From NCBI GenBank assembly GCA_949398305.1, contig CASLVD010000002.1:2942-66941 (forward strand): a stretch of DNA of 64,000 nucleotides, read 5' to 3'. The notes below the pieces were generated by a model, which did not search any database, was not told where the DNA came from, and saw only the letters and a list, made by a program, of their open reading frames with translations. A program made the position numbers and the translations under genes. Origin of the DNA: an uncultured Candidatus Melainabacteria bacterium. GTDB taxonomy: Bacteria; Cyanobacteriota; Vampirovibrionia; Gastranaerophilales; Gastranaerophilaceae. This document shows positions 26,698-55,140 of the stretch, in pieces. Numbering within the stretch: the first letter of the stretch is position 1; each line of letters opens with the position of its first letter.

Positions 26698-28746
26698 ATG
26701 AGCCAATTATTAAAGACTAAAATAGAGAAAAAAAAGCCTGTAGATAATATTCAATTATACTCATTTGATATTTTTGATACCTTGATTACAAGGTTAACGG
26801 CAACTCCTTATGGAATTTTTGTTCTAATGCAAAATGAGCTGTTGTCCAATAAAATGTATGAATCTATGCCGTTATATTTTAGACAAAATTTTGCTGAATA
26901 CAGACGGATGAGTGAGCATTATTTATATTCATATAATGATTGTGTAAATGGTTTTATGGATTGCACATTTGATGAAATTTATGAAAATTTGCAGTCAAAC
27001 TATAATTTAACTGATAGTGATGTTCATCAATTAAAAGAGTTGGAATTAAGAACCGAATATAACAGTATTATCGGAATTCCGGTTAATATAAATATTATAA
27101 AAGATTTAATAGCTAATGAGAAAAAAGTTATATTAATTTCTGATATGTATCATTCTGCGGATGTTATAAGAAGCTGGCTTATGAAGGTTGATAACATTTT
27201 TGCAGATGTTAAAATTTATGTTTCAAGTGAATGCAGATGTAAAAAACGCGGTTCTGAATTATTTAAATATGTACAAAAACTTGAAAATGTTCCATATGAA
27301 AATTGGCATCATTATGGTGATAATGAGGTTTCTGATTTTCAGGATGCGGCAGCTATTGGTATTAAAGCAGAGAAATTCCTTTATACCAATTTAAAACCAT
27401 ATGAAAAAAAAGTAATTAATAAATATGTTAATGATACTGAAATACAGCTTTTAATAGGCTGTGCAAAAAATGTCAGATTATTGTCTGATGATTCAAAATT
27501 CGATTTAGGTGCATCTTTAACTGCTCCTATTTTAATTCCTTATGTTTTATGGGTTTTAGATGAAGCTGTTAAGAAAAATTTTAAAAGACTATATTTTATA
27601 GCACGTGACGGATTTATTTTAAAAGAAATAGCTGATTATATTATTAAAACCCGCAGTCTAAATATAGAAACAAAATATATTTACGGCTCCCGTGCAGCAT
27701 GGCAAAAGCCGTCTATTGCAGTATGTTTGGATAATCTTGATCCGATTATTATGCAATACGGTTTAAATAAAGAATTCTTAAGTAAAGCTCTTGGTGTCAG
27801 CGAAAAACGTTTAACAAAGTTTTTGCCTGAAAATTTGCGTGAATCAAACAAGAATTTTAATAAAGAGCAAAGAAAAGAAATCCTTGATGCATTGAAGGGC
27901 AACAAAAAATATATTTCAAAACTTCAATCTGAGAATATTGAAAAATGTGAAAATTTAATTGGTTATATGAAGCAGGAAATTGATTTTTCTGATGATAACT
28001 TTGCGTTTGTGGATTTATCCGGAAGCGGTGTAACGCAAAATTGTCTGGCATCAGTTATAAATACGTTCTATGATAAGCCGATTAATTCATTCTATTTTAG
28101 AAATGGTATTTATAAAGTTGAACCAAAAAATGTAAACAGATTTTATTTTATTCAAAGAAATGATGCTTGTGCGCTTTTAGAATTAACTTCGCGTGCTCCG
28201 CACGGTCAAACAACAGGATATAAATGTAATTCAGAAGGTAAATATGAACCGATTTTAGATAAAAATGATGTTGATACAAAATCCTGGGGATTTGATGCTT
28301 ATTTACAAGGGATTCTTTCTTTTGTACAGGGATATGAAGTTATATCAAGAAATTATTCTATTGATTGCAGATTCCCTGTTATTGCGAACGAGTATTCTGA
28401 TTGGCTTAAAACAGCGATTGATAAAGAAACAGCTGATGGTTTAGGGACAATTGTTTATGCCCATGTAGGTTCGCATGAAGGCAGGGAAGTCGCTCCAAAA
28501 ATTACGAGATTTCAGGCTTTTAAATACCTTTTGGGTATAAGTGATTTAAATACGGATTTGTATAGATTATCTTATGAACGCTCTAAAACCAGTGTTAAAA
28601 AGATTTTGAAGTATAAAGAAATTCATCCGGATTTAAGAAAACAGCTTATTCATGTTCACTTTATAAAGAAAAAGAAAGAGTTTTTTATAAATATTCTTGG
28701 TATAAGAATCAGTTTAAAAAGCTTGATATGGGGAAAGGATAAATAA
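26698..28746 (+). CDS. HAD-superfamily domain protein of the glycan locus
   Basis: 682 aa. It has the N-terminal DxDxT box SFDIFDTLITR and a second similar module around YFIARDGFILKE. Confidence 0.55.
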   Translation: MSQLLKTKIEKKKPVDNIQLYSFDIFDTLITRLTATPYGIFVLMQNELLSNKMYESMPLYFRQNFAEYRRMSEHYLYSYNDCVNGFMDCTFDEIYENLQSNYNLTDSDVHQLKELELRTEYNSIIGIPVNINIIKDLIANEKKVILISDMYHSADVIRSWLMKVDNIFADVKIYVSSECRCKKRGSELFKYVQKLENVPYENWHHYGDNEVSDFQDAAAIGIKAEKFLYTNLKPYEKKVINKYVNDTEIQLLIGCAKNVRLLSDDSKFDLGASLTAPILIPYVLWVLDEAVKKNFKRLYFIARDGFILKEIADYIIKTRSLNIETKYIYGSRAAWQKPSIAVCLDNLDPIIMQYGLNKEFLSKALGVSEKRLTKFLPENLRESNKNFNKEQRKEILDALKGNKKYISKLQSENIEKCENLIGYMKQEIDFSDDNFAFVDLSGSGVTQNCLASVINTFYDKPINSFYFRNGIYKVEPKNVNRFYFIQRNDACALLELTSRAPHGQTTGYKCNSEGKYEPILDKNDVDTKSWGFDAYLQGILSFVQGYEVISRNYSIDCRFPVIANEYSDWLKTAIDKETADGLGTIVYAHVGSHEGREVAPKITRFQAFKYLLGISDLNTDLYRLSYERSKTSVKKILKYKEIHPDLRKQLIHVHFIKKKKEFFINILGIRISLKSLIWGKDK

Positions 28747-29735
28747 TGAAATTTGAAAATATAATTGGAGTTTATAATTCCGGTAATTATAAAATATTAA
28801 ACATCTTTGGAATTAAGTTAAAATTTAAAAACAAACATGCTGTTATTCTTAATCGAATGAGAAATATGCAAAGAGATTTAGTTAAGCAGAATAAACGATT
28901 GATTACAACTGCACTTCTTCACCAAAAAACTTTTTCAAGATTCAAGGGGATAAATAGAGGAAATGATGTATTACTTGTTGGAGCAGGTCCAAGCTTGAAT
29001 CATCTTGAACCTATTGAAGGTACAGTTAATGTTGGTTTAAATCGAACATTTATATTTGATAAAATTAAAATGGATTATCTTTTTGCGATTGATAAAGTCG
29101 GAATTGAGCAGTATTACGATGGTTTTATCAATTACAGACCTGATGAATGTATAAAGTTTGTAGGAGATCAAAATTTAGGTGCAGATTTTCAAATTCCCGA
29201 ATATGTGGCGTTAGAATCAAAAGCCTTAAGATACAAAACTTGTACCAAATTGTATCCGAGTGATTTTACACTGGATATTGATTCAGAACCTTTGGGAAAT
29301 TTCTGTACCGTATCATTACAAGCAATGCAATTTATATTATTTACTTACCCGAAAAGGGTTTATATTGCAGGAATTGACTGTAATATGACAAAAGCCGGAC
29401 ATTTTTCCGGCAAATCTTTTGATACATCAAAACGCAATGAAGATTCTCAGAAGAATGATGATAATTCAATTATATTCTGGAGTCGTTTAAAAGATTTTGC
29501 GGCTTGTTATTACCCTGATACAGAAATTGTTTCAATAAATCCTGTGGGGCTGCGAGGAATATTTAAGGAAGTCTGGACAGAATCGTATTTGGCTGAACAC
29601 CCTGAAATCCGTGCAGAATTGGGAAATGATATAGAAATATTATCTAATTTCGCAAATAATCAGAAAATCGGGGGGGGGGTAACCCTTTTAGGCCCTTATT
29701 TACAGCGTTTCAGGCGAAGGCGATTTGCAGCATAA
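28746..29735 (+). CDS. DUF115/MptE-like (motility-accessory-factor type) putative ulosonic-acid glycosyltransferase
   Basis: VGAGPSLNHLEPIEG and RVYIAGIDCN boxes. The C-terminal 20 aa are read through a G10 tract. Confidence 0.65.
   Translation: MKFENIIGVYNSGNYKILNIFGIKLKFKNKHAVILNRMRNMQRDLVKQNKRLITTALLHQKTFSRFKGINRGNDVLLVGAGPSLNHLEPIEGTVNVGLNRTFIFDKIKMDYLFAIDKVGIEQYYDGFINYRPDECIKFVGDQNLGADFQIPEYVALESKALRYKTCTKLYPSDFTLDIDSEPLGNFCTVSLQAMQFILFTYPKRVYIAGIDCNMTKAGHFSGKSFDTSKRNEDSQKNDDNSIIFWSRLKDFAACYYPDTEIVSINPVGLRGIFKEVWTESYLAEHPEIRAELGNDIEILSNFANNQKIGGGVTLLGPYLQRFRRRRFAA
29664..29735 (+). repeat. Poly-G junction cassette, copy A (G10 at 29670-29679)
   Basis: aaaatc-G10-taaccctttta...gcgttt.ag.cg.agg...tgcagcataa aligns with 32144-32213. 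Confidence 0.8.
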
Positions 29736-29770
29736 AAAATTGTTTGAAGTTGAAAATAGGGGAAATTAAA

Positions 29771-30688
29771 ATGGCAAAATTTGATAAAATAATTGGTATA
29801 TATAACGAAAATTATTATAAAATCATCAATATTTTTGGATTTAAAATTAAATTAAAGAATAGTAATCAACAATTGTATAAGAAAATGGATAAATTACATA
29901 ATGATTTAAATAGGAATATGCAAAAAAACATATCTGTATATGTTCAGCATGATAAGGCCTTTTCAGGTTATAAAAATGCTATGTACGGAAAAGATGTTTT
30001 CCTTATTGCAACAGGTCCTACATTAAATTACTTTAATCCTGTTGATGGTGCTGTGTATGTTGGCTGTAATGCTGCGTTTAAGTATGAAAAAGTTAAACTG
30101 GATTACTTATTTATGCAGGATTATGAAGCTGTGAAAGACTATATTGATGAAGTCCCGAATTTTGTAACTCCTGAATGTAAATTGTTTTATGGATATACTT
30201 GTGAGTATAAAAAAAGCAGAAGCAAGGTGATCCCTGAAAGTACTGCAATAAAACACGGTGCGATGCGTTATTATACGGATTGGGCAGATATAAAAGGTTT
30301 TAGACCGGAATTTGTGTGTGATATTACAACCCAGCCTTTGTGCTGTTATGGGACAGTTGCGTTTCCTTCTATGCAGTTTAATTTGTGGACTAATCCGAAA
30401 AGGATATATTTAGTCGGCTGTGACTGCTCAAGCAGCCATTATGATAAATCTAAGCTTGGTGATAATTTGGATGATTTAACTCATTTAATTAAAAAATGGA
30501 TTAAATTAAAGAACTTTGCTGATGCCTATTATCCTGATACGGAAATTATTTCAGTGAATCCTGTGGGGCTGCGAGGAATATTTAAGGAAGTCTGGACAGA
30601 ATCGTATTTGGCTGAACACCCTGAAATCCGTGATGAACTTGGCGATAAGATAGAAATTTTACAAACAAAAGAGGTAATGAATGTCTAA
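29771..30688 (+). CDS. DUF115/MptE-like putative glycosyltransferase (paralog)
   Basis: IATGPTLNYFNPVDG and RIYLVGCDCS boxes. ATG 29771 is preferred because MAKFDKIIGIYNENYYKIINIFGFKIKLKN parallels the paralog's N-terminus. The track start, TTG 29744, lies in the junction cassette. Confidence 0.7.
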   Translation: MAKFDKIIGIYNENYYKIINIFGFKIKLKNSNQQLYKKMDKLHNDLNRNMQKNISVYVQHDKAFSGYKNAMYGKDVFLIATGPTLNYFNPVDGAVYVGCNAAFKYEKVKLDYLFMQDYEAVKDYIDEVPNFVTPECKLFYGYTCEYKKSRSKVIPESTAIKHGAMRYYTDWADIKGFRPEFVCDITTQPLCCYGTVAFPSMQFNLWTNPKRIYLVGCDCSSSHYDKSKLGDNLDDLTHLIKKWIKLKNFADAYYPDTEIISVNPVGLRGIFKEVWTESYLAEHPEIRDELGDKIEILQTKEVMNV

Positions 30689-31415
30689 AACTTTGATATT
30701 TTTGGATTTTGACGGTGTGCTTTGTGACAGCGTAAAAGAAGCTTATTTACTTACACGTTTCGCGTATAAAAATACAGATGTAAAGCAGCCGATAGATGAA
30801 GAAAATTATCAAATGTTTCATAATTACCGTTTTCTTGTTGCAAACAGCTGGCAATATTATATTTTGGCAGATATTTTGGAAAATTTTTCTTATAAGAATG
30901 CTGATTTTATCGAAGCCCGCTACAAATACATTGTGTCTCAAGGAAAAACTGACAAATGTGACGAATTTAATAAAAAGTTTCTTGGTAAAAGAAAAGAACT
31001 TATGGAGCAGGATTTTGAATTTTGGAACGGCTTGGAAACTCCTACAAACTTTTTGCAAAAGTTAAAAAATATTATAGCACAGGCTGATGATTCATCATTT
31101 GCGATTCTTTCTACAAAAAATAAAGATGCTATTATTAAAAAATTTAATTTCTGGGGTGTGGAGTTTGATTCGGATTTAATTTTTGATAAAAAAGATTTGG
31201 AAAATTTATCTAAAGGTGAATTTATAAAAAGATATTTGGATTCTCATTCTGATATTGATGAAGCAATATTGATTGATGATAATGAAGATAACATCAACAG
31301 TTGTGCAAATATCGAGAATCTAAAAGCGTGTTTAACTTCGTGGGGATATTTAAAGTCTCCTGAAGGTAAAATGAGTGAAGATGATGTATTAAAAATAATA
31401 AAGGAGAGTGTATGA
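30681..31415 (+). CDS. HAD-like hydrolase (putative sugar-acid phosphate phosphatase)
   Basis: IFLDFDGVLCDS motif I and LIDDNEDN motif IV-like. It overlaps both neighbours (8 nt and 4 nt). Confidence 0.6.
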   Translation: MSKTLIFLDFDGVLCDSVKEAYLLTRFAYKNTDVKQPIDEENYQMFHNYRFLVANSWQYYILADILENFSYKNADFIEARYKYIVSQGKTDKCDEFNKKFLGKRKELMEQDFEFWNGLETPTNFLQKLKNIIAQADDSSFAILSTKNKDAIIKKFNFWGVEFDSDLIFDKKDLENLSKGEFIKRYLDSHSDIDEAILIDDNEDNINSCANIENLKACLTSWGYLKSPEGKMSEDDVLKIIKESV

Positions 31416-32173
31416 ATATAGTCGGAGTAATACCTGCCCGCTACCAGTCAACAAGATTTCCGGGGAAACCCCTTGCTGATATTTGCGGCAAACCTATGAT
31501 TTGGTGGGTTTATAATCAGGTAAAAAAAGTAGAAGCTCTATCAGAGGTTTATGTTGCAACAGATGACGAGCGTATTAAAACAGAATGCGAAAAATACGAT
31601 ATCAAAGTTGTAATGACAAAAGATACGCATAAAACACATCTGGACAGGTTAGCTGAATTTGTTCAAATAATTGATGCGGATTTTTACATTAATATTAATG
31701 GTGACGAACCGCTTATTGACCCTAAAAATATTGCAAAATTAGTACCAAATGGTGTTTCGCCTGATGAATTTTATTTTGCTAATGCTATGACACTAGTGAA
31801 AAATCCTGTGGAAGTTGTTGATAATGCGCGTATTAAAATTGTCACAGATGTTGACGGTTATGGGCTTTATATGGCAAGAACACCGATTCCATATCCGAAA
31901 GGTTCTTCAAATTTTGAGTATAAAAAATTTGTTGGGATTCAGTGCTTTAGTAAATCTGCGCTTGAATTTTGCGGTGTAACAGAACGCGGAGAAATCGAAG
32001 GTATTGAAGATATTGATGAATATAGATTTTTAGAACATGGTAAAAAAGTTAAATTTATACCTGTAGATGCTTCATCATTTTCTGTTGATACCAAAAAAGA
32101 TTTGGAAAAAGTCCGTGAAATGTTAAAAACTTCGCAGAATATTAAAATTTCGGGGGGGGGTAACCCTTTATAG
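31412..32173 (+). CDS. KdsB-like cytidylyltransferase (CMP-ulosonic acid synthetase)
   Basis: N-terminus VGVIPARYQSTRFPGKPLADICGKPMIWWV is the KdsB signature. The C-terminal codons run through a G9 tract. Confidence 0.75.
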   Translation: MNIVGVIPARYQSTRFPGKPLADICGKPMIWWVYNQVKKVEALSEVYVATDDERIKTECEKYDIKVVMTKDTHKTHLDRLAEFVQIIDADFYININGDEPLIDPKNIAKLVPNGVSPDEFYFANAMTLVKNPVEVVDNARIKIVTDVDGYGLYMARTPIPYPKGSSNFEYKKFVGIQCFSKSALEFCGVTERGEIEGIEDIDEYRFLEHGKKVKFIPVDASSFSVDTKKDLEKVREMLKTSQNIKISGGGNPL

Positions 32174-32213
32174 CTTATATTCAGAGCGTTTTAGCGGGAG
32201 GGCTGCAGCATGA
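32144..32213 (+). repeat. Poly-G junction cassette, copy B (G9 at 32152-32160)
   Basis: Homologous to 29664-29735. It ends in gcagcATGA, which supplies the start codon of the next gene. Confidence 0.8.
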
Positions 32214-32869
32214 TAAAAGTGTTAATCCCTGTCCGCGCCGGCTCTGTTAGAGTTAAAAACAAAAATATAAAACCTTTTGCAGATAGTAATCTTCTTACAA
32301 TAAAAGTAGAACAGATGAAACGAATTAAAGGTATTGATGGTGTAATTGTAAATTCAAATTCTGATGAAATGCTTGAAATCGCAGCCGGTCTGGGTGCAGA
32401 AGCAGTGAAAAGAGATGAATATTTCGCATCAAGTACTGTTTGTATGAACGAGGTTTACAAAAATATGGCAGAAAATTCTGATTGTGATACAATAATTTTT
32501 GCGGATGCGACAAATCCTTTAATCAAGGATGAAACCATTGAACATTGTATCAAAGCATATTTTGAAAATCTTGATGAATATGACTCACTTACAACAGTTA
32601 ACGAGATTAAACAGTTCATGTGGCAAGATGGCAAACCGATAAATTATGATGCGGCTAACAAGCCTAAAAGTCAGGATTTACCTGATATTGTAGCTTTAAA
32701 TCATGCCATAAGTATTATTCCAAGAAAATTGATGATTGAAAAAATGGATATTATCGGATACAAGCCAAATTTGTTTAAAATCGACTCTGTTGAGGCAACA
32801 GATATTGACAATGAAATAGATTTCGAATTCGCAGAATTTATGTATAAAAAATACAGGATGGTGAATTAA
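32210..32869 (+). CDS. Acylneuraminate cytidylyltransferase-family protein (NeuA/PseF-like)
   Basis: LIPVRAGSVRVKNKNIKPF N-terminal box of CMP-nonulosonate synthetases. 219 aa. Confidence 0.7.
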   Translation: MIKVLIPVRAGSVRVKNKNIKPFADSNLLTIKVEQMKRIKGIDGVIVNSNSDEMLEIAAGLGAEAVKRDEYFASSTVCMNEVYKNMAENSDCDTIIFADATNPLIKDETIEHCIKAYFENLDEYDSLTTVNEIKQFMWQDGKPINYDAANKPKSQDLPDIVALNHAISIIPRKLMIEKMDIIGYKPNLFKIDSVEATDIDNEIDFEFAEFMYKKYRMVN

Positions 32870-32871
32870 GA

Positions 32872-34449
32872 ATGAATGATATAAAAGTTTTAGATTGTAC
32901 TTTAAGAGATGGCGGATACGTTAATAAATGGGATTTCGGATTTAAGCGTATTGTGAAAATCTTGAAAAATCTTAACAACGCAAAAATAGATTATGCTGAA
33001 ATAGGATTTTTGAAAGATTGTGAATACGATAAAGAAAAATCTGTTTTTAACGAAATAAAAGAGATTGAAAATATTCTGCCAGAAGAAAGTCTTTATTCTA
33101 AAACTGTAGCTATGATTGTTTTCGGGCAATTTAGCAAGTCAAAACTTGTTCCTAAAACACCTGATATAAAACTTGATTCAATTCGTGTAACTTTTAAAAA
33201 ACATGAAATTAAAGATGTGTTTTCTTATTTCAAAAAAATTAAAGACTGCGGATATGAGGTTTTTGTAAATCCTACAAACATTGAAACTTATTCTGACAGT
33301 GAATTATTAGATTTAATTGAAAAAGTAAATAAATTAAAACCTTACGGGTTTTCTATTGTTGATACAAACGGGGTTTTGAAAGAAAGAAATCTGCAAAGGT
33401 TGTATTATCTTATTGATAATAATTTGGATGAAGATATTGCGCTTTGTTTCCACTCGCATAATAATCTTCAGCTTTCATTTTCTAACGCTCAGTGTCTTAT
33501 GAAGGTTAACCGTAATCGCCAATTGATTATTGATTCAACAATATTTGGCATGGGCAGAGGGGCAGGAAATCTTTGTACAGAGCTTTTAACCGAATATATC
33601 AACGATAATTATGATGGTAATTATGATATTATTCCTATTTTAAAAATTATTGATGAACAGATTAACCCTATATTTGCAAACACTCCGTGGGGCTATTCAG
33701 TGCCTTACTATCTAGCGGCAAAAAATCACTGCCATCCGAATTATGCAAAATATTTGGTTGAAAAACAAACTGTTCCGGTTGAAGTGATAAATAATTTGTT
33801 AAAACTTGTTCCGAATAATAAAAAATCACTCTATGATACAAATTTAATCCGTCAGATTTATCTGGATAATTTTTCTCATAAAATTGATGATACTGACACA
33901 GTAAAATATTTGAAAGAAACTCTTGAAGGTAAAGATTTGCTTGTTATTGCGCCGGGTAAAACTTTGATGCAGGAGCAGGAAAAAATTGATAATTATATCA
34001 AAAGTGAGAATCCGTTTATAATTTCTTTAAATTTTGATCCGGAAAATTATTCGCAAGATTTAGTATTTATTACTAATTTAAAAAGGTTTTCATCAATAGA
34101 AAACAATGATAAACCGCTTGTTGTAACTTCAAACATTGAATCTATTCCGCAAAATGCAAAATTGCTTAACTATTCATCATATTTGAATAATTCACGTATG
34201 TTTGATAACACTGCTTTAATGCTATTAAAACTTTTGGGTAAAATTGGTGTAAAAAAAGTTACTTTTGCAGGTCTTGACGGATTTAACACTAAAACAACCG
34301 AAAATTATATCAGCAATGAATTCGTAAATAACGGCAAAGAAGGCGAAGAATTTGATGAAAGAAATCAAATTATGAGCGAAGAATTGCAAAAATTTGCAAA
34401 GAAAATTGATATAAAATTCCTGACAAAATCGCAGTATACAATAAATTAA
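32872..34449 (+). CDS. HMGL-type aldolase (DRE-TIM barrel) fused to a C-terminal DUF115-like domain
   Basis: VLDCTLRDGG and CFHSHNNLQL metal-ligand boxes. The C-terminal half repeats the DUF115 boxes (DLLVIAPGKTL; KVTFAGLDGF). Confidence 0.6.
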   Translation: MNDIKVLDCTLRDGGYVNKWDFGFKRIVKILKNLNNAKIDYAEIGFLKDCEYDKEKSVFNEIKEIENILPEESLYSKTVAMIVFGQFSKSKLVPKTPDIKLDSIRVTFKKHEIKDVFSYFKKIKDCGYEVFVNPTNIETYSDSELLDLIEKVNKLKPYGFSIVDTNGVLKERNLQRLYYLIDNNLDEDIALCFHSHNNLQLSFSNAQCLMKVNRNRQLIIDSTIFGMGRGAGNLCTELLTEYINDNYDGNYDIIPILKIIDEQINPIFANTPWGYSVPYYLAAKNHCHPNYAKYLVEKQTVPVEVINNLLKLVPNNKKSLYDTNLIRQIYLDNFSHKIDDTDTVKYLKETLEGKDLLVIAPGKTLMQEQEKIDNYIKSENPFIISLNFDPENYSQDLVFITNLKRFSSIENNDKPLVVTSNIESIPQNAKLLNYSSYLNNSRMFDNTALMLLKLLGKIGVKKVTFAGLDGFNTKTTENYISNEFVNNGKEGEEFDERNQIMSEELQKFAKKIDIKFLTKSQYTIN

Positions 34450-35006
34450 CTGATTTTTGATGAAACTTCATTTTTCATCGCATCATAAATTTTGTATGTC
34501 ATATAGCAATCTTGTTCGGCTCTGTGATGACCTGAGGAATCAATCTTATAATAATCTGCAACAAGGTTTAATTTGTGGTGCTTAAGATCGCAAATTTTTC
34601 GTGACATTGCGCAGGTATCAATGTAATCATTTGAAAATTCTTTATTGAAGTATTTTTGATAATTATCATAAATAAAATTAATATCGAAATTAACATTATG
34701 ACCAATTACAACATCTTGTCCGATAAATTCAATATATTTATCAAGAACATTATCTATTGGCTGTGCTGTTTCAACCATTTTATTTGTAATACCTGTTAAA
34801 TTAGAGATAAAATAATTTATTTTGCTTTTAGGTTTAACAAGAGTTGTGAATTTTTCACTTATTTTATTTTGTCGAATTTTTATTGCCGAAAGCTCTATAA
34901 TTTCGTTTCTTAAACTTGAAAGACCTGTTGTTTCAATGTCTATAACTGTATAATCATCAGGAAGCGTGTTAATATTATTCCCTTTTTTTCGAATTTGTGT
35001 AGTCAT
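34446..35006 (-). CDS. DEDDh 3'-5' exonuclease (DNA polymerase III epsilon-like)
   Basis: Exo motifs VIDIETTGL, GHNVNFDINF and HHRAEQDC. Confidence 0.8.
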   Translation of the reverse strand: MTTQIRKKGNNINTLPDDYTVIDIETTGLSSLRNEIIELSAIKIRQNKISEKFTTLVKPKSKINYFISNLTGITNKMVETAQPIDNVLDKYIEFIGQDVVIGHNVNFDINFIYDNYQKYFNKEFSNDYIDTCAMSRKICDLKHHKLNLVADYYKIDSSGHHRAEQDCYMTYKIYDAMKNEVSSKIS

Positions 35007-46146: not shown

Positions 46147-49100
46147 ATGTCTGAGACAAAATATGCAAAAAGAGTAACGCCAATGGGTATTCCTCATACT
46201 CGTTTGGACGATTTACCGGACCTTATTGAAGTGCAAAAAAAATCGTTTGAATGGTTTTTAAAAGAAGGTTTGAAAGAAGAATTACTTTCATTCTCTCCTA
46301 TTAAAGACTATACAGGCAGATTAGAATTACACTTCTTACCAAACTATACTTTCGATAATGCAAAGTATACAGTTGAAGAAGCAAGAATTCATGACGCAAC
46401 TTATGCAAAACAATTACGCGTTATGATTAGATTAGTTAACCGTGACAGCGGTGAAATTAAAGAACAAGAAGTTTACATCGGCGACATCCCTACAATGACT
46501 GACAAAGGTACTTTCATTGTAAACGGTGCAGAACGTGTTATCGTATCACAAATCGTTCGTTCTCCTGGTGTTTACTTCAAATGCGATCCGTCACCTACAG
46601 GAAAACGTTTGTATAACGCTACAATGATTCCTAACCGCGGTGCTTGGTTGAAAATCGAAACAGATTCTAACGACATTATCCACGTTAAAATCGACAAAAA
46701 CAGAAAAATCTTAGCTACAACTTTATTAAAAGCTATGGGTATTACTGTTTCTGAAATGGAATCAAAATTCACTCACTTTGAATTCTTGAAAAAGACTTTG
46801 GAAAAAGATCCTACAGAAACTACAGATGAAGCTTTAATTGAATTGTACAAAAAATTAAGACCTGGTGATCCTGCATCTCCTCAAGGCGGACGCCAAATCT
46901 TAGAATCAAGATTCTTTGATGAAAAGAAATACGATATCGGTCGTGTTGGTCGTTATAAATTAAACAAAAAATTAAACTTAAATATACCAAACAACCAAAG
47001 AACATTAACTGTTGAAGATATTGTTTCAACAATTGAATACTTAATCAACTTAACTTATGATGAAGGTCAATTGGATGATATCGACCACTTGGGTAACAGA
47101 AGAATCCGTTCAGTTGGTGAATTGTTACAAAACCAATTCAGAGTAGGTCTTTCAAGAATCGAAAGAATCGTTAAAGAAAGAATGACTCTTCAAGATTCTG
47201 AAACTTTAACACCGTTGAACTTATTGAATACTAAACCTTTAGTTGCTTCATTAAAAGAATTTTTCGGTTCTTCACAGTTATCACAGTTTATGGACCAGAC
47301 AAACCCTCTTGCTGAATTGACTCACAAACGTCGTATTTCAGCTTTAGGACCTGGCGGTTTACAAAGAGAAAGGGCAGGATTCGCGGTTCGTGATATTCAC
47401 CCTTCTCACTACGGACGTATTTGTCCTATCGAAACTCCGGAAGGTCCGAACGCAGGTTTGATTGGTTCACTTGCAACTCACGCTAAAGTTAACGATTACG
47501 GTTTTGTTGAATCTCCGTTCTTTGTTGTTAAAGACGGTGTTGTGACTGATGAAGTTGTTTATATGACAGCAGATGCTGACGAAAATTTCCGTTGTGCTCC
47601 TGCTGACGTTAAATTAACAAAAGACAGAAGATTTGTTGAGTCAATGGTTCCTGCAAGATATCGTTCAGAATTTATTATGACAGAAGCTTCTAAAGTTGAC
47701 TATGTGGGTGTTTGCCCTATCCAAATCATTTCAGTTGCGACTTCAATGATTCCGTTCATCGAACACGACGATGCTAACCGTGCATTGATGGGTTCTAACA
47801 TGCAGCGTCAAGCAGTACCTCTTTTAATCACTCAAAGACCAAGAGTTGGTACAGGGCTTGAATCTCGTGTTGCAAAAGACTCAGGTATGGTTATTGTATC
47901 TGATGTAGACGGTACAGTTGAAAGAGTTGTTGGTGAAGAAATTGTAATCAGAGATGTACAAGGTAAGCCGCATATTTACACTCTAATGAAATATGTACGT
48001 TCTAACCAAGATACTTGTATTAACCAAAGACCTATTGTTCACGAAGGCGACAAAGTTAAAGCCGGCGATGTAATTGCTGATGGTGCTTCAACTTGCGGCG
48101 GCGAACTTTCATTAGGTAAAAACATCTTGGTTGCTTATATGCCTTGGGAAGGTTATAACTTCGAGGATGCTATCTTACTTTCAGAAAGATGCGTTCACGA
48201 TGATATCTTCACATCATTACACATTGAAAAATTAGAAATCGAAGCTCGTCAAACTAAACTTGGACCGGAAGAAATTACACGTGAAATTCCAAACGTTTCA
48301 GAAGATGCTCTAAGACATTTGGACGAACGCGGTATTGTTCGTATCGGTGCTCGTGTTTACGCTGACGATATATTAGTTGGTAAAGTTACACCTAAAGGTG
48401 AATCTGAACATCCGCCTGAAGAAAAATTATTAAGAGCAATCTTCGCTGAAAAAGCAAGAGATGTTAAAGATAATTCACTTCGCGTACCTCACGGAGAAGG
48501 CGGTAGAGTACTTGACGTAAAAGTATTCGACAGAGAAAAAGGTGATGAACTTCCACCTGGTGCTAATACAGTTATCAGAGTTTACATTGCTCAAAAACGT
48601 AAAGTTTCTGTAGGTGATAAACTTTCAGGACGTCACGGTAACAAAGGTATCGTATCACGTATCTTGCCAAAAGAAGATATGCCATTCTTACCTGATGGTA
48701 CTCCTGTAGATATCGTATTGAACCCATTGGGTGTACCTTCTCGTATGAACGTTGGTCAAACTTATGAATTATTGTTAGGTTTGGCTGCATACTTGACAGG
48801 TGATCATTACGAAGCACCATCATTTGATGAAATGTACGGTGAAAACCAATCAGAAATCGCAACAAAAGCTGAACTTCTTAGAGGTATCAAAGAATCAGGC
48901 TGCGATTGGGTTGGCGAAGACGGTAAGGTAATGCTTATTGACGGTAGAACCGGTGAACCATTCGACAGACCTGTAGCTGTTGGTTTAACTTACTTCTTGA
49001 AACTTGTCCACTTGGTTGATGATAAAATCCACGCTCGTTCAACCGGTCCTTACTCATTAGTAACTCAACAACCTTTGGGTGGTAAGGCTCAATTCGGTGG

Positions 49101-49464
49101 ACAAAGATTCGGAGAAATGGAAGTTTGGGCATTGGAAGCTTACGGTGCTGCTTATACACTTCAAGAAATGTTAACAATCAAATCAGATGATGTTAACGGA
49201 CGTAACAGAGCGTATGAAGCTATCGTTAAAGGTGACAATATTCCAAGACCTGGTATTCCTGAATCATTCAAAGTACTTGTAAGAGAATTACAAAGTATCG
49301 GTTTAGATATAACAGTAGCGAAGAAAGACGGTCAGGAAGTAGACTTGATGACAGATATGGACGACTTGAGAAAAGCTGCTCCAAAAAGAACTCTGTCAGA
49401 TGTTGATTCTGAGTTGTTGAATATCAACTTCTTTGAAACACCTACCACTTTTGGAGATCTATAA
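46147..49464 (+). CDS. rpoB: DNA-directed RNA polymerase subunit beta
   Basis: 1105 aa with canonical blocks ([39 protein letters not shown]). Confidence 0.98.
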
Positions 49465-49533
49465 TAAGTAATGTGTGATTGGCGGGATATTTTCCCGCCG
49501 GATTCACCAAATTGAAAAAGGAGAACATTATAA

Positions 49534-51243
49534 ATGTCAACAAGTATTGATTATTTTGATTATATACGAATAAGTATTGCCTCTCCGGACAGAATACTTC
49601 AATGGTCTCACGGCGAAGTTACCAAACCGGAAACAATAAATTATCGTACATTAAAACCGGAAAGAGACGGTTTATTCTGTGAAAGAATTTTCGGGCCGAC
49701 AAAGGACTGGGAATGCTATTGCGGAAAATATAAAAGAGTAAGACATAAAGGTATTATCTGTGAACGCTGCGGTGTTGAAGTTACTGATTCAAAAGTTCGC
49801 CGTCACAGAATGGGACATATTAAACTTGCAGCACCGGTTTCTCATATCTGGTTCTTAAAAGGTATCCCTTCATATCTTGGTTTACTTTTAGATATGACTT
49901 TGAAAGATCTTGAACAAGTTATCTATTTCAACAGCTATGTTGTAATTGATGGCGGCGACAGTGATTTCAAAAAACTTCAATTGTTAACTGAAGAAGAATA
50001 CGAAGATTATATGGCTGAAAACGAAGAATCAACTTTAAAAGTTGGTATCGGCGCAGAAGCTATTAAAGAACTTCTTGCTGAAGTTGATATCAAAGCTTTA
50101 GCAGAAGAAATCAGAACAGAACTTGCAGGAAACGTAACTTCTGTTCAGAAAAAATCTAAATTAATTAAGAGATTAAGATTATTAGATTCTTTAATCTCAT
50201 CAGATACAAATCCAACTTGGATGATTATGGATGTACTTCCTGTAACACCGCCTGATTTAAGACCTATGGTTCAATTAGACGGCGGACGTTTCGCGACATC
50301 AGATTTAAACGACTTATACAGACGTGTAATTAACAGAAACAACCGTTTACAAAGATTGTTGGAAATGGGTGCTCCTGAAATTATCGTAAGAAACGAAAAA
50401 CGTATGTTACAAGAAGCAGTTGATGCTCTTATCGATAACGGAAGACGCGGCAGAACAGTCGTTGGTCCGAACAACAGAGCGTTAAAATCACTATCTAACA
50501 TTATTGAAGGTAAACAAGGTCGTTTCCGTCAAAACTTGTTAGGTAAACGTGTTGACTACTCAGGTCGTTCAGTAATCGTTGTTGGTCCGACTCTTCAATT
50601 GAACCAGTGCGGTCTGCCAAAAGAAATGGCAATCGAACTATTCAAACCGTTTGTTGTTAACAAACTTATCGAAAGAGGATACGTTCAAAACATCAAATCA
50701 GCTAAGAAGAAAATCGAAAGATCTGAACACATCGTTTGGGATATCTTAGAAGAGGTTATTGACGGACATCCGGTTATGTTAAACCGTGCTCCAACCCTTC
50801 ACAGATTAGGTATTCAGGCATTCGAACCGAAATTGGTAGAAGGCCGTGCAATCCAACTTCACCCGCTTGCTTGTACAGCGTTCAACGCTGACTTTGACGG
50901 TGACCAAATGGCTGTTCACGTTCCTCTTTCTATTGAAGCTCAAGCTGAAGCAAGAATGTTGATGTTAGCTACTAACAACTTGTTAGCTCCTGCTAACGGT
51001 AAACCAATCGTAACACCTTCTCAGGATATGGTATTGGGTATGTATTACTTAACTACTATCAAAGATCCGTCTCAAGAAGTTAAGGGTTACTTCTATAACT
51101 TCCAGGATGCAATCTCTGCTCTTGAAGTAGGTGTAATCAAGCTTCACGACAAAATCATCGTTAGAGATGAAAAAGGTGAAAGATTAGAAACTACAGTTGG
51201 TAGAATTATCTTCAACGAAGAGGTTAGAAAAGCACTTGTGTAA
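49534..51243 (+). CDS. rpoC1: RNA polymerase subunit gamma (N-terminal part of a split beta-prime)
   Basis: 569 aa with the zinc-binding [23 protein letters not shown] and the catalytic [12 protein letters not shown]. It ends in TAA at 51241-51243. Confidence 0.95.
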
Positions 51244-51288
51244 GTGTAAAAATCAGTGTAAAAATTAACTAATTGAAGGAAAATTAGA

Positions 51289-54200
51289 ATGGAAAGAACA
51301 TATACAAATACAAAAAAATCACCTGATTTCATTAACAAACAAATGGACAAGGGTTCTTTGAAAAAATTGTTAGGTCAGATGTATTTGGAATACGGCGGTG
51401 CTAAAGCAGCAGCATTAGCCAATGCTCTTAAAAACTTAGGTTATAAGTATGCAACCGTTTCCGGTACAACAATTTCAATTGCAGACCTTTCAGTTCCTGA
51501 ATCTAAAAAAGAGTTATTGAAATCAGCTGAAAAAGAAATTGAAAAATCAACAAACAGATACCTTAAAGGTGAAATTACAGAGGTAGAAAGATATACAAAA
51601 GTTATCGATACTTGGTCTGAAACAACAGCAAAATTGACAGAACAGGTTGTAGAAAACTTTGATAGATTAAACCCTGTATATATGATGGCATTCTCCGGAG
51701 CTCGTGGTAACTTATCACAGGTTTCACAGCTGGTTGGTATGCGTGGTTTGATGGCAGATGCGCAAGGTCAAATCATCGACTTACCGATTAAATCAAACTT
51801 TAAAGAAGGTTTGTCAGTAACTGAATACATCATTTCATCATACGGTGCACGTAAAGGTCTTGTAGATACAGCGTTAAAAACAGCTGACTCAGGTTACTTA
51901 ACAAGACGTCTTGTTGACGTAGCACAAGATGTAATTATTAGAGCTGATGATTGCCATACAACAAAATATATCGATCTTAAATCTATCATGGATGGCGATG
52001 TAGTTATTGTTCCGTTAATCGACAGATTGTTAGGAAGAACAGTAGCTCAGGACATTTGTGATGCTGAAGGTAACGTTTTAGTTGCTAACGGTACTACAAT
52101 GGATCGTGATGATATTAAGAAAATCTCAGGTCTGGATTTACACGAACTTAGAGTTCGTTCAGGTTTGACTTGTGGACTTGAATATGGTGTATGTCAAAAA
52201 TGTTATGGCTGGGCAATGACAACTCAAAAACTTGTTGATATCGGTGAAGCAATCGGTATTATCGCAGCTCAGTCAATCGGTGAACCTGGTACACAGCTTA
52301 CAATGAGAACCTTCCACACAGGTGGTGCGGTAGGAGTTAAAGAAGCTAAAAAAGAAATCTTAGCTCGTGAAGCCGGTGTTGTTGTTTCTAAAATCAAAGC
52401 AAGAGAACTTAGAACACGTCACGGGGATATCGTTCAGGTTTCTATGTATGAAGCTGATATTGAAGTTAAAGGCGAAAAAAGAACTACTAAATATCACATT
52501 CCTGCAGGTGCTACATTATTTATTACTGACGGAATGGAAGTTGCTAAAGGCTTCAAAATGGCTGAACACGCTCCATCATCAGTTGGTGACAGCTCTCGTT
52601 TAACAGAAAAAGCTACAAAAGATATTACAACTGATATTTCAGGTGAAGTAGTATTTGAAGACTTCAAAGCTGATGAAAAGAAAGACAGACAAGGTAACGT
52701 TTCAAGAACAACTAACAAACAAGGTATTATTTGGGTATTAGGCGGTGACGTTTATACTCTTCCTGGTGGTTCAAGAATTCTTGTTAAAGACGGTCAGAAA
52801 ATTTCTGAAGGCGAAAAACTTGCTGAAACTTTAACAATTTCTGAACACGGCGGTGAAGTTAGAGTTGGTGAAGATTTAGTTATCGAAGAAGCTATATTTG
52901 ACGGTAAAAAGATTAAGAAAATTGTTCAAGGTAAAGAATTGACAATTGTTATCGCATCTTTAAGCCCTGAAAATGCTTCATTTGAACAAACTAAAAAAGA
53001 ACAACTTTGGACAGTTGATAAAACCGGTGAAAAATATATCGTTAAAGCTCCTGTTGATACAACAGTTGAAAACGGTATGATTATTGCAGAACTTATTGAT
53101 GATGAGTGTGCTGTAACATCATCAGGTGAAATCAGATACGTTGATGTTGAAGTTGATGAAAATCAAATCATTACAAAACCTGGTAAAGTTGTATTTATTC
53201 CTGAAGAAATTCACCAAATCAATAAAGATTCAACATTGAAAATGGTTGAAAACGGAACAACAGTTACAGCTGGTACTGAAATTGTTAAAGACGTTTACTG
53301 CCATATCGATGGTGTTGTAGAATTCAAAGAATATAACGATGTAATTCACGAAATTACTGTAAGACCTGGTGAAGTTCATACTTTATCGAGTATTTCAGAA
53401 TTGAAAGTTGATGAAGGTGAAGTTGTTAAAAAAGGTACAGTTATCGCAGAAGGTATCAAAGCTAAAGAAACATCTATTGTTACAATAATGGATTCTTCAG
53501 TTGATGAGTTACCTCTTGATGATTTAGATGAAGAATTAGATTCAGCTTTATCATTAGATGACGATTCAATTGCTAACCAGCCTGTACAAATTCTTGTAAG
53601 ACCGGTTCAAGTATTAGAAGTTAATCAGAAAGATGTATCAATTGCGTTCAATACAACTGATGAATTAATTGATATTATCCCTGTAACTCAACTTCAATAC
53701 AAAGACGGTGCAAGAGTTAGAAATGTTGACGGTGCTACAATCACAAGAACATCTTTAGTTCTTCAAATGCAAGGTTACTTATCACACCTTAAAGGTATGG
53801 TAGAACTTGATTCACAAGGTTCATTGAGAATTGTTGTACTTGAAAACTTAATCGTTCGTCGTGAAATGGAAGGTTCTGCTAATTCATCTCTTCAAACAGA
53901 ATTACTTGTTAAAGACGGTGAAACAATTGAACCGAAAACACCGGTTGCAAAAACTCAAGTTTTAGCAATGCATGATGCAATAGCATCAATCAAATCTGAT
54001 GATGAAGAAGTAAGAAGACTTCTTTTAATCTCTCAAAGCTCTGAAACAACAGTTTCTGTAAAAGGAAAAGCAGTTGTTAAGAAAGGTGACTTTGTAAAAA
54101 CTGATAAAGTCTTAGCTGAAAGCGGTGAAACTTCTCCTGTTTCAGGTGTTGTTACTGCTGTTAATAAAGGCGAAGTTTCTATCAGAAACGGACGTCCTTA

Positions 54201-55140
54201 CTTAATTAGCCCTGGTACAATGCTTCAAATCGATTCAGGTGCTCTTGTTTTAAGAGGTGACTTACTTGCAACATTAGTATTTGAAAGAGAAAAAACAGGC
54301 GATATTGTTCAAGGTCTTCCAAAAGTAGAAGAGCTTCTTGAAGGTAGAAAACCTAAAGATTGTGCTATTTTAGCAGAATATGACGGTACTGCAAAAATTG
54401 AAATTGATGATGATGGTTTGCCAAGATTATTCTTGACAGATGCTGACGGTTCATCAACTGAGATTAAATACGCAATTGACTCAAATGTAATTGTTTCTAA
54501 CGGACAAAAAATTACAAAAGGTCAACCGTTAACTTCAGGACCTATGAATCCTCATGATGTTATGAGATTATGCGGTCCGGAAGCTGCTCAGCAATATCTT
54601 GTAGACGAAGTACAACGTGTATACCGTTCTCAAGGTGTAGAAATTGCTGATAAACACATTGAAATCATTGTTCGTCAGATGACTAAGAAAGTTAAGGTAA
54701 TTGATGCCGGCGATACTAACTTGTTACCTGGTGAATTGATAGAAATGCAAACATTCGAAAAAGAAAATAAAGCAGCAGAAGAAGCAGGTAAAACTCTTGC
54801 AACTTGTGAATACATGTTGTTAGGTATTACAAAAGCTTCATTGAATACTGAATCATTCATCTCAGCAGCTTCATTCCAGGAAACAACAAGAATCCTTACA
54901 GAAGCAGCAGTTGATGGTAAAAAAGACTTGTTAAGAGGTTTGAAAGAAAACGTTATTATCGGTCGTCTAATTCCTGCAGGTACAGGTTTCCATCACTTGA
55001 TTAATGCTGATGAAGAACGTGACAGAGAAGAAAGAAAACGCGCTGTTGCTCAAAGAAATCAAGCTCGTAAACCTTCTGCGATTTTAGAAGAAATCGAAGG
55101 AATGTTTGGTGCACCTGATTTTAATTTGGACGAAGAATAA
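51289..55140 (+). CDS. rpoC2: RNA polymerase subunit beta-prime (C-terminal part of the split subunit)
   Basis: 1283 aa with its own SD GAAGGA. Trigger-loop halves are MRTFHTGG (from 52303) and [15 protein letters not shown] (from 54298), separated by about 650 aa by my count. Confidence 0.95.

Follow-up and report, generated by a model that had tools for sequence, protein, structure and literature searches.

Length-variable poly-G tracts at two gene junctions of a surface-glycan operon in gut Melainabacteria: a probable case of C-terminal and fusion phase variation

What does a run of ten guanines do near the 3' end of a glycosyltransferase-like gene in an AT-rich genome, and which proteins does its length select? 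The question is raised by a stretch of 64,000 nucleotides (nt), hereafter the window, from contig CASLVD010000002.1 of GenBank assembly GCA_949398305.1, assigned to an uncultured Candidatus Melainabacteria bacterium. This bacterium belongs to the Gastranaerophilales, uncultured non-photosynthetic relatives of the cyanobacteria that inhabit animal guts. The run, a poly-G tract, lies at the junction of two paralogous DUF115-like genes (paralogs 1 and 2), and an earlier note on this DNA had proposed that it works as a phase-variation switch. We consider it probable, at roughly 0.6, that the tract, lying in a surface-glycan operon, is a genuinely hypermutable homopolymer at which strand slippage would bring about phase variation of the C-terminal or fusion type.

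The tract consists of ten G at positions 29670–29679 of the forward strand, exactly where the earlier note had placed it, in the context ...cagaaaatc GGGGGGGGGG taaccctttt... and inside the open reading frame (ORF) 28746..29735. Re-translation of the region with 6–13 G reproduces the three frame outcomes that had been predicted. With G9, as well as G6 and G12, paralog 1 meets a TAA directly after GGG and ends at 311 amino acids (aa), whereas with G10, as well as G7 and G13, it gains an 18-aa basic tail, VTLLGPYLQRFRRRRFAA, and reaches 329 aa. With G8 or G11 the frame remains open across the spacer into ORF 29771..30688, yielding a fusion of 646 or 647 aa, respectively, of which paralog 2 forms the C-terminal half and whose predicted junction is spanned by the peptide GGGNPFRPLFTAFQAK. 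The second paralog does follow the tract as had been stated, but the position of its ATG is corrected here to 29771–29773. The stop codon of the shortest form is as follows.

29680..29682, forward strand: TAA stop used at G9 (also at G6 and G12), from the sequence and its re-translation

Since the tract begins at codon 309 of 329, some 300 codons into the gene, a change in its length alters only the C-terminus of paralog 1, which has no tail, an 18-aa tail, or a read-through. A complete enzyme domain is retained in every frame, both at this site (311, 329 and 646/647 aa) and at the second site described below (250, 253 and 266/267 aa). Re-translation of all frames at both sites therefore describes C-terminal or fusion switching, not ON/OFF switching. 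Of the phase-variation switch originally proposed, the variation in length thus stands, but the ON/OFF behavior typical of Campylobacter maf genes does not.

How unusual are such tracts in this DNA? The GC content of the window is 32.5%, and the only G or C runs longer than five nucleotides in its 64 kb are the G10 at 29670–29679 and a G9 at 32152–32160; there are no C runs longer than five. Two runs of at least eight G or C are observed, against 0.09 expected under a first-order Markov model. Both are uninterrupted homopolymers above the length of about seven or more, and above the compositional expectation, that mark simple-sequence-repeat contingency loci.

Whether the lengths vary in nature was examined by searching a collection of 15 billion proteins for exact matches to every predicted variant product. 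At site 1, the G9 product was found on 304 contigs, the G10 product on 14 and the G8 product, the 646-aa fusion, on two; no contig carried a product of G6, G7 or G11–G14. The second site gave 468 contigs with G9, 30 with G8 and seven with G10, and none with a product of G5, G6, G7 or G11–G14. G9 is therefore the norm at both sites, and the G10 of the window is a minority state at site 1; the "truncation" that had been assigned to G9 is correct as a frame outcome, but as a status it has to be reversed. The comparison across related assemblies that the earlier note had suggested as a check thus returned G8, G9 and G10 in otherwise matching loci, and the fusion of about 640 aa that it had envisaged occurs in nature as the 646-aa protein, of which one locus (L003) was read. 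Among the fetched loci, the two sites appear in the combinations (10,9), (9,9), (10,8), (8,9) and (9,10), given as G at site 1 and site 2. Over up to about 9–10 kb, these variant loci differ from the window, besides the tracts, by one single-nucleotide polymorphism (SNP) and one scaffold gap; an apparent 17-nt difference in L005 was rejected as biology, being a run of N at that gap. Otherwise matching genomes thus differ in length at both sites and in several strain backgrounds. At site 2, G8 and G9 coexist in one background (P0036 with G9 on 59 contigs and P0040 with G8 on eight) and again in a second (P0037 on 27 contigs with P0039 on nine).

The site-1 tract is not the sole one and proved to be part of one of two copies of a module of about 90 nt, the other copy lying 2.5 kb downstream with a variable G tract of its own.

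29646..29735, forward strand: module copy 1, running from the final eight codons of paralog 1 through the G tract and TAACCCTTT to the tail region, as far as GCAGCATAA
32128..32213, forward strand: module copy 2, comprising the end of a kdsB-like gene, the G tract, TAACCCTTT, a GGGAGGG Shine-Dalgarno sequence and an ATGA overlap with the next gene
32152..32160, forward strand: poly-G site 2, G9 in the window, at the 3' end of the KdsB-like ORF 31412..32173

Aligned over about 90 nt, the two copies show 74% identity and score 82, compared with -15 +/- 8 for shuffled sequences. They have in common a 24-nt flank upstream of the tract (AAyTTCGCA.AATA..AAAA..TC) and, downstream, TAACCCTTT right after the run, followed by AGCGTTTyAG and TGCAGCAT. 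Copy 2 ends with the GGGAGGG Shine-Dalgarno sequence and the ATG of a second cytidylyltransferase of 219 aa. In copy 1, the equivalent positions have decayed: the downstream ATG of copy 2 reads ATA and the Shine-Dalgarno sequence is weakened. At site 2, G9 yields a protein ending in ...GGGNPL (253 aa), with its stop 37 nt upstream of the next ATG, and G10 one ending in ...GGG (250 aa), with its stop 46 nt upstream. With G8 or G11 the tail becomes ...VTLYSLYSERFSGRAAA (266/267 aa), and the TGA overlaps the downstream ATG as ATGA. In one strain, the T of the TAA after the site-2 tract has apparently been changed to A, as judged from the protein, so that there would be no immediate stop and the tail reads ...GGETLYS. 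The tail frames end in -AA, and a resemblance to an ssrA-like Ala-Ala degron was set aside, as the overlap of these codons with the region just upstream of the downstream start is the simpler explanation.

Site 2 is limited to this species group, in which copy 2 is kept with G9 in L024, a GTDB representative genome whose paralog 1 is 93% identical, and in L105, a JGI contig. The idea of a widespread mobile module was discarded: in 1.3 Mb of related loci, a regular-expression scan located it in L024 alone, at site 2, and a scan of JGI metagenomes gave one real match (L105, of the L024 type, with G9) and one chance match. In more distant species, an HMGL-like gene directly follows the KdsB-like gene.

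Where did the site-1 copy come from? Positions 29540–29613 and 30559–30632 form an identical 74-nt stretch common to both paralogs, within a 179-nt repeat of 83% identity. Many strains, on hundreds of contigs, have instead a single 307-aa hybrid gene with the body of paralog 1 and the tail of paralog 2, and these single-hybrid strains (L110–L113) are 1,019 bp shorter between the 74-nt repeats. Site 1 therefore lies within a strain-variable segment, and the presence of paralog 2 and the tract is polymorphic. Misassembly across the 74-nt repeat was rejected as the main cause of the hybrid, whose contigs have their own SNPs on both sides and whose layout recurs in other strains represented by hundreds of contigs. 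The homologues that share 65% identity or less terminate in ...EIL.SKEV.NV, where they extend into the start of the HAD gene, and carry no tract. The site-1 tract probably originated as a duplicate of the site-2 junction, gained together with the second paralog.

Similar tracts were found elsewhere in the order. A sister species carries a homologue (52% identical), adjoining a homologue of the 682-aa gene that opens the operon of the window, with a mid-gene tract at about codon 89. Its length is G11, G12, G13 or G14 in different genomes (L018–L023, L038, L106–L109; tract at L018:5267), G14 standing on a 2.0-Mb chromosome assembled with HiCanu. Only G13 gives the intact form (302/306 aa), the other lengths resulting in N-terminal fragments of 98 or 115 aa and C-terminal fragments; read from the sequence, this is the arrangement of a classical ON/OFF switch. 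The same homologue has two alternative C-termini, ...VEIEYLN and ...VEIEKEYYYSL. A second G13 tract is located at L023:6780, downstream of rpmI/rplT and near a contig end. Other Gastranaerophilales have such tracts in glycan genes as well. In one metagenome-assembled genome (MAG), a G10 joins two cytidylyltransferase-like ORFs into one of 464 aa (L048:13691), and a G9 precedes by 53 codons the end of an ORF of 250 aa that resembles a hexapeptide acetyltransferase in sequence and has no Pfam match at E <= 0.001 (L048:15020). A hifiasm-assembled chromosome has a G10 at 65 codons from the start of a short-chain dehydrogenase gene (L088:5782), and in a further MAG a hexapeptide-transferase ORF contains a C9 close to its end (L032:3022). 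Over 446 kb of Gastranaerophilales DUF115 loci, six runs of at least eight were counted against 1.14 expected, an enrichment of about five-fold. MAGs labelled Alphaproteobacteria, Akkermansia or Lachnospiraceae likewise have G or C runs of 9–14 in the vicinity of DUF115-like genes (L029, L031, L046, L070, L073, L090, L095, L097, L100); the non-Gastranaerophilales loci overall have 15 runs, with 12 expected by composition. The G11–G14 tract of the sister species, with its intact and truncated forms, suggests that poly-G variation of glycan genes recurs in the Gastranaerophilales lineage.

The course of events that we propose for the window is as follows. Single G's would be gained or lost by slipped-strand mispairing during replication, the tracts being very probably hypermutable. 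The length at site 1 would then pick the product, namely an immediate stop (G9), the basic tail (G10) or the paralog fusion (G8/G11), and the same module would act in the same way at the end of the KdsB-like gene. The outcome would be C-terminal or fusion phase variation, by which glycan enzymes may be modulated rather than switched off. As the G8/G11 stop at site 2 falls on the downstream start, tract length could also tune translational coupling to the next gene.

Several observations weigh against this proposal. Since the catalytic domain is intact in every frame, the tracts give no ground for predicting an ON/OFF phenotype. The mode is G9 at both sites even though G9 selects different module frames, which fits a mutational equilibrium better than selection for one product, and VTLLGPYLQRFRRRRFAA and VTLYSLYSERFSGRAAA, the two tail peptides, have no conserved character. 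The minority lengths make up about 5–7% of assemblies and the fusion 2 of 320, in counts of contigs that may include one sample assembled twice (ENA and Logan); most of the site-2 G10 cases are on short contigs, and the variation is known from assemblies, that is, between genomes rather than from read counts within a population. The site-1 copy is absent from many strains, and species with a KdsB-like protein of 85% identity or less have neither module nor tract at that junction. Given the G9 mode in differing frames, the dissimilar tails and the rarity of the fusion, a strong selected function of any one product is doubtful.

The same facts lend themselves to a neutral account, in which fast-mutating tracts persist where any frame is tolerated, as the relic of a duplicated junction that is not used as a switch. 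The full enzymes in all frames, the shared G9 mode, the very rare fusion and the unconserved tails all suit this account, as does site 1 as a degenerate copy of site 2 (ATG to ATA, weakened Shine-Dalgarno sequence) in a dispensable 1,019-bp segment; moreover, at this composition the roughly 30 codons of the fusion frame would stay open by chance in an estimated 9% or so of cases. Set against it are the persistence of uninterrupted G9–G10 at 32.5% GC across several strains that have diverged and a second GTDB representative genome, the exact ATGA stop/start overlap that G8 produces at site 2, the roughly five-fold enrichment of G/C tracts in Gastranaerophilales glycan loci, and the sister-species tract that switches a homologue on and off in mid-gene. 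On balance, we regard the neutral account as rather unlikely, and phase variation of the C-terminal or fusion type as the better reading. That reading could be carried further: the module may be a self-contained, copyable junction switch, composed of a poly-G, a stop after it, a frame ending on ATGA, and a Shine-Dalgarno sequence with a start, whose length would set neighboring genes as uncoupled, coupled or fused, and which was copied within the operon; together with the ON/OFF tracts of the sister species, poly-G switching of surface glycans might then be general in gut Melainabacteria. We hold this extension to be speculative and distinctly unlikely.

A different kind of objection is that the variants could stem from sequencing or assembly, through homopolymer miscalls or polishing errors around a length that is in truth fixed. 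Poly-G runs are a weak point of short-read chemistry, the minority states amount to a few percent, many site-2 G10 cases are on contigs of 1–4 kb, and one G11 contig of the sister species has a coverage of 1.6. Nevertheless, variants are found on contigs of 50–200 kb (11 of the 18 G10 contigs that were read are at least 50 kb long), come from three sources (ENA scaffolds, Logan and an NCBI MAG) and recur at 12–25% in several strain backgrounds. The two sites vary independently, whereas eight A/T runs of 7–8 nt in the compared region are invariant across the fetched loci, a control that is modest because these loci were picked as variants. In addition, the sister-species tract has four lengths, one of them in the HiCanu long-read assembly. 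Recurrence in independent backgrounds, at independent sites, on long contigs and in three sources argues against an artefact, which we judge very unlikely. Least credible of all, to the point of being nearly negligible, is recoding, whereby RNA-polymerase slippage or ribosomal frameshifting would give several products from one genotype. Long homopolymers can cause transcriptional slippage, and all three frames have a plausible product; however, the tracts show no known slippery heptamer and no stimulatory RNA structure, folding at the module copies being no better than for shuffled sequences (z = -1.1, 0.3 and 0.1) and an Rfam search of 28500–33000 returning only chance-level matches of the snoRNA type, and the length variation seen directly in DNA is sufficient for the variants. 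These same searches led us to reject a structured RNA or riboswitch as the reason for the tracts. Roles as a promoter spacer or terminator were likewise rejected, with no promoter-like hexamer pair around either tract, promoter-like sites at the number expected from shuffled sequences, and no terminator-like site at either tract.

Which enzymes would be affected? Both tracts belong to an operon at 26698–34449 on the forward strand, which encodes a HAD-like protein of 682 aa, the two paralogs, a HAD-like protein, two cytidylyltransferases and an HMGL-like protein. The genes, with the one that follows the operon, are listed here.

26698..28746, forward strand: 682-aa protein with a weak HAD-IA signature (TIGR01549, E 4.5e-5), first gene of the operon
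28746..29735, forward strand: paralog 1, DUF115-like/sialyltransferase-like putative glycosyltransferase, 329 aa in the G10 state; the G9 form ends at 29682
29771..30688, forward strand: paralog 2, DUF115-like, 305 aa, with its own Shine-Dalgarno-like AGGGGA 8 nt upstream
30681..31415, forward strand: HAD-like hydrolase, 244 aa, by domain annotation
31412..32173, forward strand: KdsB-like CMP-ulosonic acid cytidylyltransferase, 253 aa in the G9 state (PF02348, E 8e-43; NCBIfam CMP-Kdo synthetase subfamilies)
32210..32869, forward strand: second cytidylyltransferase, 219 aa, with a weak PseF/NeuA-like match
32872..34449, forward strand: HMGL-like aldolase/synthase-type protein, 525 aa, last gene of the operon
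34446..35006, reverse strand: short exonuclease gene, by annotation

The stop of the 682-aa gene overlaps the start of paralog 1, and the pairing of this gene with a DUF115-like gene is kept in the sister species. The 3' end of paralog 2, at 30674–30688, encodes ...M N V before the stop and extends into the start of the HAD gene (ATGTCTAA). Homologues with as little as about 50% identity keep the terminal -NV, for which this overlap is the probable reason. Just downstream of the exonuclease gene are a 178-aa ORF, a Stealth protein, an epimerase/dehydratase and an ABC exporter. The assignment of the DNA to Melainabacteria holds: NCBI names the exact or near-identical proteins "Candidatus Gastranaerophilales bacterium", and rpoC, which comes after rpoB at 46147–55140, is split into rpoC1 (569 aa) and rpoC2 (1283 aa), a cyanobacterial arrangement that fits this origin. 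The related representative genomes come from mouse-gut catalogues.

The paralogs are 44% identical in amino acid sequence. Their earlier designation as DUF115 proteins is weak in Pfam, since paralog 2 scores 19.6 bits against PF01973 (E 8.6e-4), below the gathering cut-off of 34.6, and paralog 1 has no PF01973 match; profile searches of PDB sequences and of NCBIfam found nothing. The designation is upheld through homologues, 8 of 15 aligned ones matching PF01973 at E<1e-3 (best 2.3e-6) and many in the databases carrying a precomputed PF01973, and through the fold. The AlphaFold (AF2) model of paralog 1 (predicted local distance difference test, pLDDT, 83.9) has as its top Foldseek matches Cst-II and Cst-I of C. 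jejuni, with E from 2.5e-5 to 6e-4, probability 1.0 and template-modelling (TM) scores of 0.35–0.50, and it also matches MptE (HPPK kinase, 8sd5). The predicted fold is thus shared with GT42 sialyltransferases (Cst-I/Cst-II) and with the MptE-like family PF01973, formerly DUF115, and the adjoining cytidylyltransferases fit a CMP-sugar donor; unlike members of these families, however, the window proteins reach only 13–16% sequence identity to the fold matches and a PF01973 score under the threshold. From the model and this setting, a role of the paralogs as CMP-ulosonic-acid transferases is a reasonable inference.

What could such variation mean for the way in which these bacteria deal with host immunity or phages? 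The variable tracts, documented across hundreds of public assemblies, together with the clear ON/OFF case in the sister species, suggest that the Gastranaerophilales may share the stochastic surface-variation strategy of Campylobacter, Helicobacter and Neisseria. Annotations of such loci in MAGs will vary with the sample for reasons of biology, listing proteins of 311, 329 or 646 aa and either intact or split genes; public assemblies can therefore be used as a population survey of tract states.

The closest known systems are found among the contingency loci of Campylobacter and Helicobacter. In common with the C. jejuni loci (maf/DUF115, flagellar glycosylation, lipooligosaccharide and capsule), the window has uninterrupted G8–11 tracts in glycan-modification genes of an AT-rich host-associated bacterium, a length that differs between otherwise matching genomes, and an enzyme of the DUF115/sialyltransferase-like fold class, the paralog-1 model matching Cst-II. 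The modal length of nine is also shared; in C. jejuni, it has been ascribed to mutational patterns rather than selection (PMC3401435). The differences are that the window tracts, known here from sequence alone, are at gene 3' ends and never truncate the enzyme, the mid-gene ON/OFF layout being seen only in the sister-species homologue, and that the organism is of cyanobacterial lineage. As to a Campylobacter-type Maf link, the annotation scan, which covered part of the window ORFs, identified as neighbors cytidylyltransferases, HAD and aldolase-like proteins, Stealth, an epimerase and an ABC exporter, with no flagellin among the annotated ORFs.

A nearer counterpart is Helicobacter canadensis, in which C-terminal phase variation and tract-dependent fusion of adjacent coding sequences have been described (Snyder et al. 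2010, PMC2823697). As in the window, the poly-G tracts of H. canadensis are placed late in the frame, a full-length protein receives a different C-terminus in each frame, one frame runs into the next coding sequence as a single protein, and the tracts cluster in glycan or surface loci. Variation in length was reported there at the population level, and here it is seen between assemblies. The two differ in that the window belongs to another phylum, that the fused partners are paralogs of each other, and that the tract is within a module of about 90 nt which occurs twice in one operon, one frame of copy 2 ending on the downstream start. Repeat-mediated phase variation in Melainabacteria did not come up in full-text literature searches, in agreement with the earlier note. 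Poly-G contingency tracts of the C-terminal and fusion type are already known and no new mechanism is put forward; what is new, to judge from these searches, is their occurrence in the Melainabacteria lineage.

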